A stretch of 64,000 bases of DNA from the NCBI RefSeq assembly GCF_003334355.1, contig NZ_QOWP01000003.1; one strand, given 5' to 3'. This document shows positions 35,266 to 35,360 of the stretch, one piece after another; the stretch's first letter is position 1; every line of letters begins with the position of its first letter. The position numbers and the translations under genes were made by a program. The notes beneath the pieces were generated by a model. The model made no database searches. It was given only the letters and a program-made list of their open reading frames with translations, and was not told where the DNA came from. The stretch is from Escherichia coli (GTDB lineage: Bacteria > Pseudomonadota > Gammaproteobacteria > Enterobacterales > Enterobacteriaceae).

Positions 35266-35360
35266 AGATGTTGTTCTGCCAATGTTATGCCGCTGCACCC
35301 TCAACTTACGTTATCCCAACTTGTGACTGTTATTCGGCGCTCCACGGAGCGCCTTTTTTT
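35266..35360 (+). ncRNA. malH: malG 3' UTR ending in terminator hairpin ggcgctccacggagcgcc + T7 (35336..35360); corresponds to the 3'-UTR-derived sRNA MalH described in E. coli
   Basis: Hairpin and T-run read directly; sRNA identity is from published knowledge, not shown by sequence. Confidence 0.45.

Follow-up and report, generated by a model that had tools for sequence, protein, structure and literature searches.

We identified the segment immediately downstream of malG in the window, a 64,000-nucleotide stretch of Escherichia coli DNA (contig NZ_QOWP01000003.1 of assembly GCF_003334355.1), as the known E. coli small RNA MalH, which is derived from the tail of the malEFG mRNA and turns down the general porins; it is annotated already and is not new. 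Direct comparison revealed that positions 35258 to 35360 of the window (plus strand) are identical at 103 of 103 nucleotides to the ncRNA malH (b4807, ‘small regulatory RNA MalH’) of E. coli K-12 MG1655, which is annotated at NC_000913.3 4242531..4242633 on the minus strand, overlaps the last 8 nt of malG and ends at the malEFG terminator. This match, together with the finding of 0 mismatches to MG1655 over the 6501 nt surrounding the segment, indicates that the window is from a K-12-type E. coli and that the segment is malH itself, with the same sequence, position and length. Given the evidence presented below, we consider it very probable that MalH is a processed, Hfq-dependent small RNA (sRNA) derived from an mRNA 3′ UTR, and that the proposed porin mechanism holds as a whole. 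MalH is a clear case of an operon that bears a trans-acting regulator in its own 3′ end. This analysis adds only a little to what is known: precise coordinates for MalH and its sub-features, a map of conservation by block across 80 Enterobacterales species, and a specific, computed complementarity to the ribosome-binding region of ptsI.

The host transcript of MalH is encoded by malE (31472–32662), malF and malG, all on the plus strand. The last of these genes, malG (34375–35265), is a 296-amino-acid open reading frame that carries this annotation in E. coli genomes, among them that of MG1655, and its TAA stop codon was called at 35263–35265. The window also carries xylE (35637–37112) on the plus strand. 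The sequence-only reading had described a 95-nt segment after the malG stop that ends in a hairpin plus T7, and this is base-accurate: 35266–35360 is exactly 95 nt long, with the hairpin at 35336–35353 and TTTTTTT at 35354–35360. Its proposal that the segment corresponds to MalH is confirmed by the identity to b4807. The start at 35266 that it gave is valid for the UTR and not for the sRNA, whose annotated 5′ end (35258) is 8 nt inside the malG coding sequence. That an Hfq-associated sRNA had been reported from this 3′ UTR, and that it links maltose uptake to the porins, both agree with the literature, in which an Hfq-bound RNA of about 104 nt is co-induced with malEFG and acts as a repressor of ompC and ompA (PMC7213987, PMC8081044). 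The reading would have been abandoned had no discrete RNA of about 100 nt been detected from the region, and published Northern blots show a discrete species of about 104 nt (PMC7213987, PMC8081044). The case has value for calibration, as a real, annotated sRNA was recognized from the sequence alone.

MalH was found by Iosub et al. using Hfq CLASH, was cross-checked with RIL-seq and TIER-seq, and was confirmed by Northern blotting (PMC7213987). It has also been called MdoR (an earlier name, used in a preprint) and, in Salmonella, STnc810. [quoted passage not shown] We placed the published 5′ end in the window using the RefSeq feature and the offsets given in the text of PMC8081044. Within E. 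coli the locus is nearly universal: 441 nt around the site are present in 5423 of 5426 complete genomes, where the terminator is conserved, and in 5369 of these genomes the 103-nt core reaches an identity of at least 99%. MalH is unlabelled in the PGAP-annotated E. coli genomes examined. A scan of positions 33000–38000 against Rfam 15 (E ≤ 10) returned no family for the segment, MicX included; a match to TarB (E = 4.7; 18.7 bits versus a gathering score of 80) was dismissed as chance. Searches of a plasmid collection matched only chromosome-sized records filed as plasmids, and revealed no mobile copy of MalH.

The segment ends in an intrinsic terminator, GGCGCUC-CACG-GAGCGCC (GGCGCTCCACGGAGCGCC; 35336–35353, plus strand), with seven base pairs, six of them G-C, a 4-nt loop and a computed folding energy of −13.3 kcal/mol for the hairpin alone. 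The U7 tail that follows (35354–35360) is the 3′ end of both the malEFG mRNA and annotated malH, and an Hfq site is expected there. Matches to a loose terminator pattern are no rarity here (5, versus 3.3 expected in shuffled sequences), and among them only GGCGCTCCACGGAGCGCC combines a G+C-rich stem with an uninterrupted T7. At two of the stem pairs, 18–19 double compensatory changes (C-G to G-C and U-A to C-G) were detected among 44 Enterobacterales sequences. Reading the sequence, we also identified a U-rich stretch, UGUUAUU, at 35328–35334 (plus strand), which ends one base before the terminator hairpin. MalH thus has a rho-independent terminator, a long U tail and a U-rich stretch upstream, and from general knowledge of Hfq-dependent sRNAs we infer that the tail and the U-rich stretch form its Hfq-binding module. 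The fold of the whole MalH molecule is not unusually stable (z = −0.74), as expected for an sRNA with an open seed, and adds no support. RNAalifold also proposed a 3-bp long-range helix between GGU (MalH nt 3–5) and GCC of the seed, which we do not claim: it shows no covariation, because both of its sides are constrained for other reasons.

Transcription of malEFG, the activation of which by MalT and CRP is established, would stop at the intrinsic terminator (35336–35360). Endonucleolytic decay of the polycistronic mRNA would then leave a 3′ fragment of about 103 nt that has its 5′ end about 8 nt inside malG and carries a 5′ monophosphate. Both the fragment and its 5′ monophosphate are documented in the literature, and the decay enzyme is probably RNase E. 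Hfq would bind and stabilize this fragment, presumably at the module described above, consistent with the published cross-linking. The sequence-only reading had held that the sequence tells nothing about processing, which proved too cautious. A scan of 35240–35300 for the RNase E-type motif RN↓WU identified only two sites, GG↓UUA, cut between 35261 and 35262, and AG↓AUG, cut between 35267 and 35268, which define a putative processing zone at 35260–35270 (plus strand). The motifs are +4 and +10 nt downstream of 35258, exactly the offsets that PMC8081044 gives for a site mapped with TEX and for the RNase E site identified by TIER-seq in Salmonella. RNase E dependence in E. coli is based on the Salmonella TIER-seq data and the 5′-monophosphate status (PMC8081044) rather than on a blot of an rne mutant, and MalH is listed among RNase E-processed 3′ UTR sRNAs in a review (PMC9438474); we infer that RNase E cleaves at these motifs in E. 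coli. In most other genera the malG stop is followed by GUUUCAUC, which gives AG↓UUU, the full RN↓WUU consensus.

A consensus scan of 34000–35390, which a weak promoter could escape, found no sigma-70-like promoter on the plus strand upstream of 35258. Together with the RN↓WU motifs, this makes the sequence consistent with release by cleavage and with a somewhat ragged 5′ end. The only plus-strand sigma-70-like site nearby is at 35391–35418 (TTAATA-16-TATTAT), just past the MalH terminator in the xylE upstream region. The same data bear on the alternative that MalH is transcribed independently, from a promoter of its own located within the end of malG. Precedent for this exists in MicX of Vibrio cholerae, an sRNA that is likewise located directly 3′ of malG, has outer-membrane and transport targets, and involves RNase E and Hfq. 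However, MicX has its own promoter, is expressed independently of mal and has no targets in common with MalH (PMC8081044, PMC9438474). MalH is sensitive to TEX, and thus carries a 5′ monophosphate, and its level tracks that of malG through an approximately 35-fold induction by maltose (PMC8081044). Given these observations, the lack of a promoter-like site and the absence of any Rfam match to MicX or to another family, save the chance-level TarB, MalH does not belong with MicX and an origin from its own promoter is extremely unlikely. As a processed RNA, MalH instead resembles CpxQ, SdhX, NarS, SroC and OppZ, which are also cleaved from parent mRNAs, have a 5′ monophosphate, use the parent terminator as Hfq module and are locked to the expression of an operon. 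It differs from them in its targets, as MalH hits porin mRNAs, exerts feed-forward control on lamB, a member of its own regulon, and does not buffer stress.

The seed of MalH consists of two stems. Stem 1, UUAUGCCGCUGCA (MalH nt 28–40; 35285–35297, plus strand), is predicted to form a 13-bp helix with UGCAGUGGCAUAA in the ompC 5′ UTR and 8 bp with CGGCAUAA in ompA, and stem 2, CCCUCAAC (MalH nt 41–48; 35298–35305, plus strand), pairs with UGAGGG(U) of ompC, on the far side of a 10-nt bulge, and with GGGGUGC of ompA. Duplexes were computed for MalH nt 24–50 only and compared with 500 dinucleotide shuffles of the target. The duplex with the ompC 5′ UTR has an energy of −30.1 kcal/mol, versus −17.1 ± 2.9 for the shuffles, none of which (0/500) was as good. 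In this duplex, MalH nt 28–39/40 pair with UGCAGUGGCAUAA, with one G-U pair, and nt 40/41–46 (CCCUCA) pair with UGAGGG beyond the 10-nt bulge, so that the site occupies −66 to −38 relative to the AUG. The two-stem-plus-bulge geometry computed here agrees with the description in PMC8081044. A sliding-window search located the pairing optimum at MalH nt 25–33 for both ompC and ompA, and at nt 29–37 for the sRNA OhsC. The seed–ompA duplex has an energy of −25.8 kcal/mol (2/500 shuffles as good) and covers nt +5 to +20 of the 133-nt leader. We take these nucleotides to be part of the 5′-terminal stem-loop region that stabilizes ompA mRNA, and opening of this stem by MalH would fit the reported destabilization. 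The single-stranded seed (35285–35305) would thus pair with the ompC 5′ UTR and with the 5′-terminal hairpin region of ompA, lowering both mRNA level and ribosome loading.

Two other pairing statistics were set aside. Duplexes between the whole MalH molecule and the UTRs are long and loop-ridden (5–6 of 500 shuffles as good for ompC, 109 of 500 for ompA), and the longest helix with G-U pairs allowed is a weak measure, with a chance mean of 9.5 bp, a 13-bp helix for ompC that is equaled in length by 11 of 300 shuffles, and no information for ompA. The window also contains a 12-nt perfect complement to MalH nt 31–42 inside the coding sequence of aceA (isocitrate lyase; 59821–59832, minus strand). 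About 0.5 such matches are expected in the window, and we do not consider aceA a target. In the repression of ompC or ompA through Hfq-dependent pairing with the 5′ UTR, MalH is similar to MicC, MicA, RybB and MicF, which, unlike MalH, are encoded by separate genes and transcribed from promoters of their own. The sites for MalH are far upstream of the ribosome-binding site in ompC and at the extreme 5′ end in ompA.

Published experiments support this pairing. The level of MalH peaks transiently at an OD600 of about 1.8 (PMC7213987). In over-expression RNA-seq, a 15-minute pulse of MalH lowered ompC, ompA, MicA and rseA (PMC8081044). OmpC and OmpA GFP fusions are repressed by wild-type MalH and not by a seed mutant; a compensatory ompC mutant gave partial rescue, and the compensatory ompA reporter was unstable (PMC8081044). 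Polysome profiles showed that ompC mRNA leaves the polysomes (PMC8081044). In a chromosomal double-seed mutant grown on maltose, MicA increased by about 30%, lamB decreased by about 20% and ompC did not change; the mutation also disturbed the processing of MalH, and malG mRNA was 1.6-fold higher (PMC8081044). MalH thus reduces MicA and modestly raises lamB, with effects of 20–30%, so that maltoporin is favored over the general porins during growth on maltose; no direct pairing between MalH and MicA is known (PMC8081044). Switching on maltose transport would in this way also yield an RNA that lowers the competing general porins and indirectly relieves repression of maltoporin.

To place MalH in an evolutionary context, we scanned a genome collection on the basis of MalG and obtained 80 loci, each from a different Enterobacterales species; the resulting counts lack phylogenetic independence. 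In 42 of the 80 loci, the first 300 nt after the malG stop contain the strict seed motif GCC[AG]CTGC, versus 0.069 occurrences per 300 nt elsewhere in the same loci, and near-variants such as GCCACTGT and ACCACTGC cover many of the remaining loci. Alignment of 44 compact UTRs resolved five blocks: the malG end, GUUUCAUC, the seed AUGCCACUGCA-ACCCUCAACUU, a segment termed block D (AACUUGUGACUGUU), and the terminator. Mean identities to E. coli were calculated over 41 rows, leaving out E. coli itself, Escherichia sp. MOD1 and E. albertii. They are 0.94 for the malG end (MalH nt 1–8), 0.77 for seed stem 1 (nt 28–40), 0.82 for seed stem 2 (nt 41–47), 0.71 for block D (nt 61–75) and 0.77 for the terminator stem (nt 79–96). 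The seed is therefore conserved beyond the UTR that surrounds it, as the sequences on either side of it have mean identities of only 0.29 (nt 9–27) and 0.45 (nt 48–60). Such conserved islands in a drifting UTR are predicted by a trans-acting seed and not by a bare terminator.

A profile extending from the seed to the terminator matched 54 of the 80 loci at full length, 13 in block D and the terminator, 2 in the terminator only and 1 weakly (E > 1e-3); it did not match in the remaining 10, which belong to Providencia, Photorhabdus, Limnobaculum and Hafnia paralvei. The Salmonella RNA STnc810 and malG.psiE.IGR of Klebsiella pneumoniae SGH10 arise from the same locus as MalH and form Hfq chimeras at the same binding site. 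For Klebsiella this was reported from RIL-seq (PMC11347178), and Salmonella iRIL-seq placed STnc810 among the sRNAs that regulate OmpD (PMC10703908). The seed AUGCCACUGCA-ACCCUCAAC, block D and the terminator are common to these orthologs and to many Enterobacteriaceae, whereas nt 9–27 of the E. coli RNA stand in place of the widespread GUUUCAUC block. One seed position is G in E. coli, E. albertii and some Yersinia versus A in most genera (GCCGCUGCA versus GCCACUGCA), and both forms pair with the ompC U, as G-U or A-U.

In the malG 3′ UTRs of Yersinia and Serratia (loci L050–L052, L056, L059, L062–L064, L067, L068, L071, L073, L077 and L080), a terminator of the GGCGGCC type is preceded by a CUGUGUCUU block, and GCCRCUGC is also retained in many of them, suggesting that they carry an older, diverged form of MalH. 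Repeat-like inserts (ERIC/REP-type) of about 100–250 nt were found in the malG 3′ UTRs of an Enterobacter MAG, Lelliottia, Kosakonia, Klebsiella oxytoca and Raoultella (loci L019, L022, L026, L058, L042 and L013). Insertions, which across the loci comprise hairpins as well as such ERIC/REP-like elements, are located either upstream of the seed, after the stop codon, or downstream of it, ahead of block D and the terminator, and leave the conserved blocks intact.

Alternatively, MalH could be an inert intermediate of malEFG decay that is protected by its terminator and Hfq, with the reported effects arising from over-expression. The unchanged ompC of the chromosomal seed mutant is in keeping with this, as are the MicA and lamB shifts of only 20–30%, which are confounded by the altered malG processing, and the authors themselves call the biological significance of MalH unclear (PMC8081044). 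Yet the seed and block D are conserved in Enterobacteriaceae while the neighboring UTR diverges and takes insertions, the interactomes of E. coli, Salmonella and Klebsiella give chimeras at the same site, the seed–ompC pairing is far beyond that of shuffled sequences, and the seed mutant loses reporter regulation (PMC8081044). Because of the conserved seed and the multi-species interactomes, we consider an inert fragment quite unlikely, with the small native phenotypes keeping this reading alive at a low level.

The conservation of block D raises the possibility of a second regulatory role for MalH. Its core, ACUUGUGACUG (MalH nt 62–72; 35319–35329, plus strand), is a candidate second seed, as it is an 11-nt perfect Watson–Crick complement of CAGUCACAAGU (positions 745–755 of target sequence L086) in the ptsH–ptsI spacer. 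This site is 12 nt upstream of the ptsI AUG and touches the ptsI Shine–Dalgarno sequence, AAGG. Chance would give an expected number of about 0.01 such matches in the 545-nt target region, which we chose because CLASH and RIL-seq report chimeras between MalH and ptsH/ptsI (PMC8081044). The target site CAGUCACAAGU is identical in three lineages with a common HPr protein. By computation, block D is predicted to pair with the ptsI ribosome-binding region. The location of the site suggests repression or altered ptsH–ptsI coupling; the authors of PMC8081044, having seen the ptsH/ptsI chimeras, guessed activation. We tentatively propose that MalH may be a two-seed regulator in which block D, beyond any part as spacer or Hfq-binding sequence, pairs next to the ptsI Shine–Dalgarno sequence, so that the maltose operon would directly tune translation of Enzyme I of the PTS, a serious possibility that we nonetheless rate as somewhat short of even. 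If true, it would connect a two-seed MalH through Enzyme I to EIIA-Glc and its inducer exclusion of MalK.

MalH may also interact with another sRNA. MalH nt 37–48 (UGCACCCUCAAC; 35294–35305) form a predicted 12-bp perfect duplex with nt 1–12 of OhsC (positions 921–932 of L087), and the local duplex, at −30.0 kcal/mol, is as strong as that with ompC. OhsC, an antitoxin sRNA, is the sRNA most often found in MalH chimeras in CLASH and RIL-seq data (PMC8081044), and by computation its 5′ end could be bound by this part of the seed. The main role of MalH might then be RNA–RNA sponging with OhsC, as the titrating or the titrated partner, with porin repression being secondary. This is unlikely in our estimation; the strength of the duplex and the frequent chimeras speak for an interaction, but sponging is compatible with the porin model and not exclusive of it, and would be an addition rather than a replacement.

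In addition to trans-acting roles for MalH, we considered what the segment might do on its own strand or for its neighbors. It contains a 36-codon open reading frame whose ATG, at 35269, follows the malG stop by 3 nt and an AAGG by 7 nt and which remains open to 35379. This ATG is absent outside Escherichia, where GTTTCATC is found instead, and the frame crosses the terminator, such that terminated transcripts would lack a stop codon. We rejected it for both reasons, and a small protein is almost certainly not encoded here.

The gene xylE and its surroundings (35361–37157) constitute a presence/absence segment in E. coli, as only 3611 of 5423 complete genomes cover the full query. In the approximately one third of E. 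coli without xylE, homology breaks off precisely at the final T of the MalH tail (35360), and the convergent gene psiE comes next, with its stop codon overlapping the last two T. At its other end, the xylE segment of the window closes with a separate hairpin followed by T5 (37123–37157), so that both junctions are T-runs.

The convergent arrangement raises the question of whether the conserved 3′ UTR acts in cis, as a stability element of malG mRNA or as a terminator shared with psiE. The seed mutation did shift malG mRNA, by the 1.6-fold noted above (PMC8081044), and psiE converges on malG in most species as well as in about a third of E. coli, with its stop overlapping the U tail. On the psiE strand, however, the hairpin is followed by GAAUAACAG and not by a U tract, so that transcription from that side would be terminated poorly. 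Action in cis would also leave the target complementarity and the Hfq chimeras unexplained. It is thus very unlikely as a replacement for trans-action by MalH and could at most be an addition to it.

Farther downstream, positions 37701–37793 of the window gave a sub-threshold Rfam match to naRNA4 (29.3 bits, E = 0.024; gathering score 59.5) and contain a palindromic unit, GCCGGATG...CATCCGGC. This unit looks like a REP/BIME element located downstream of psiE.
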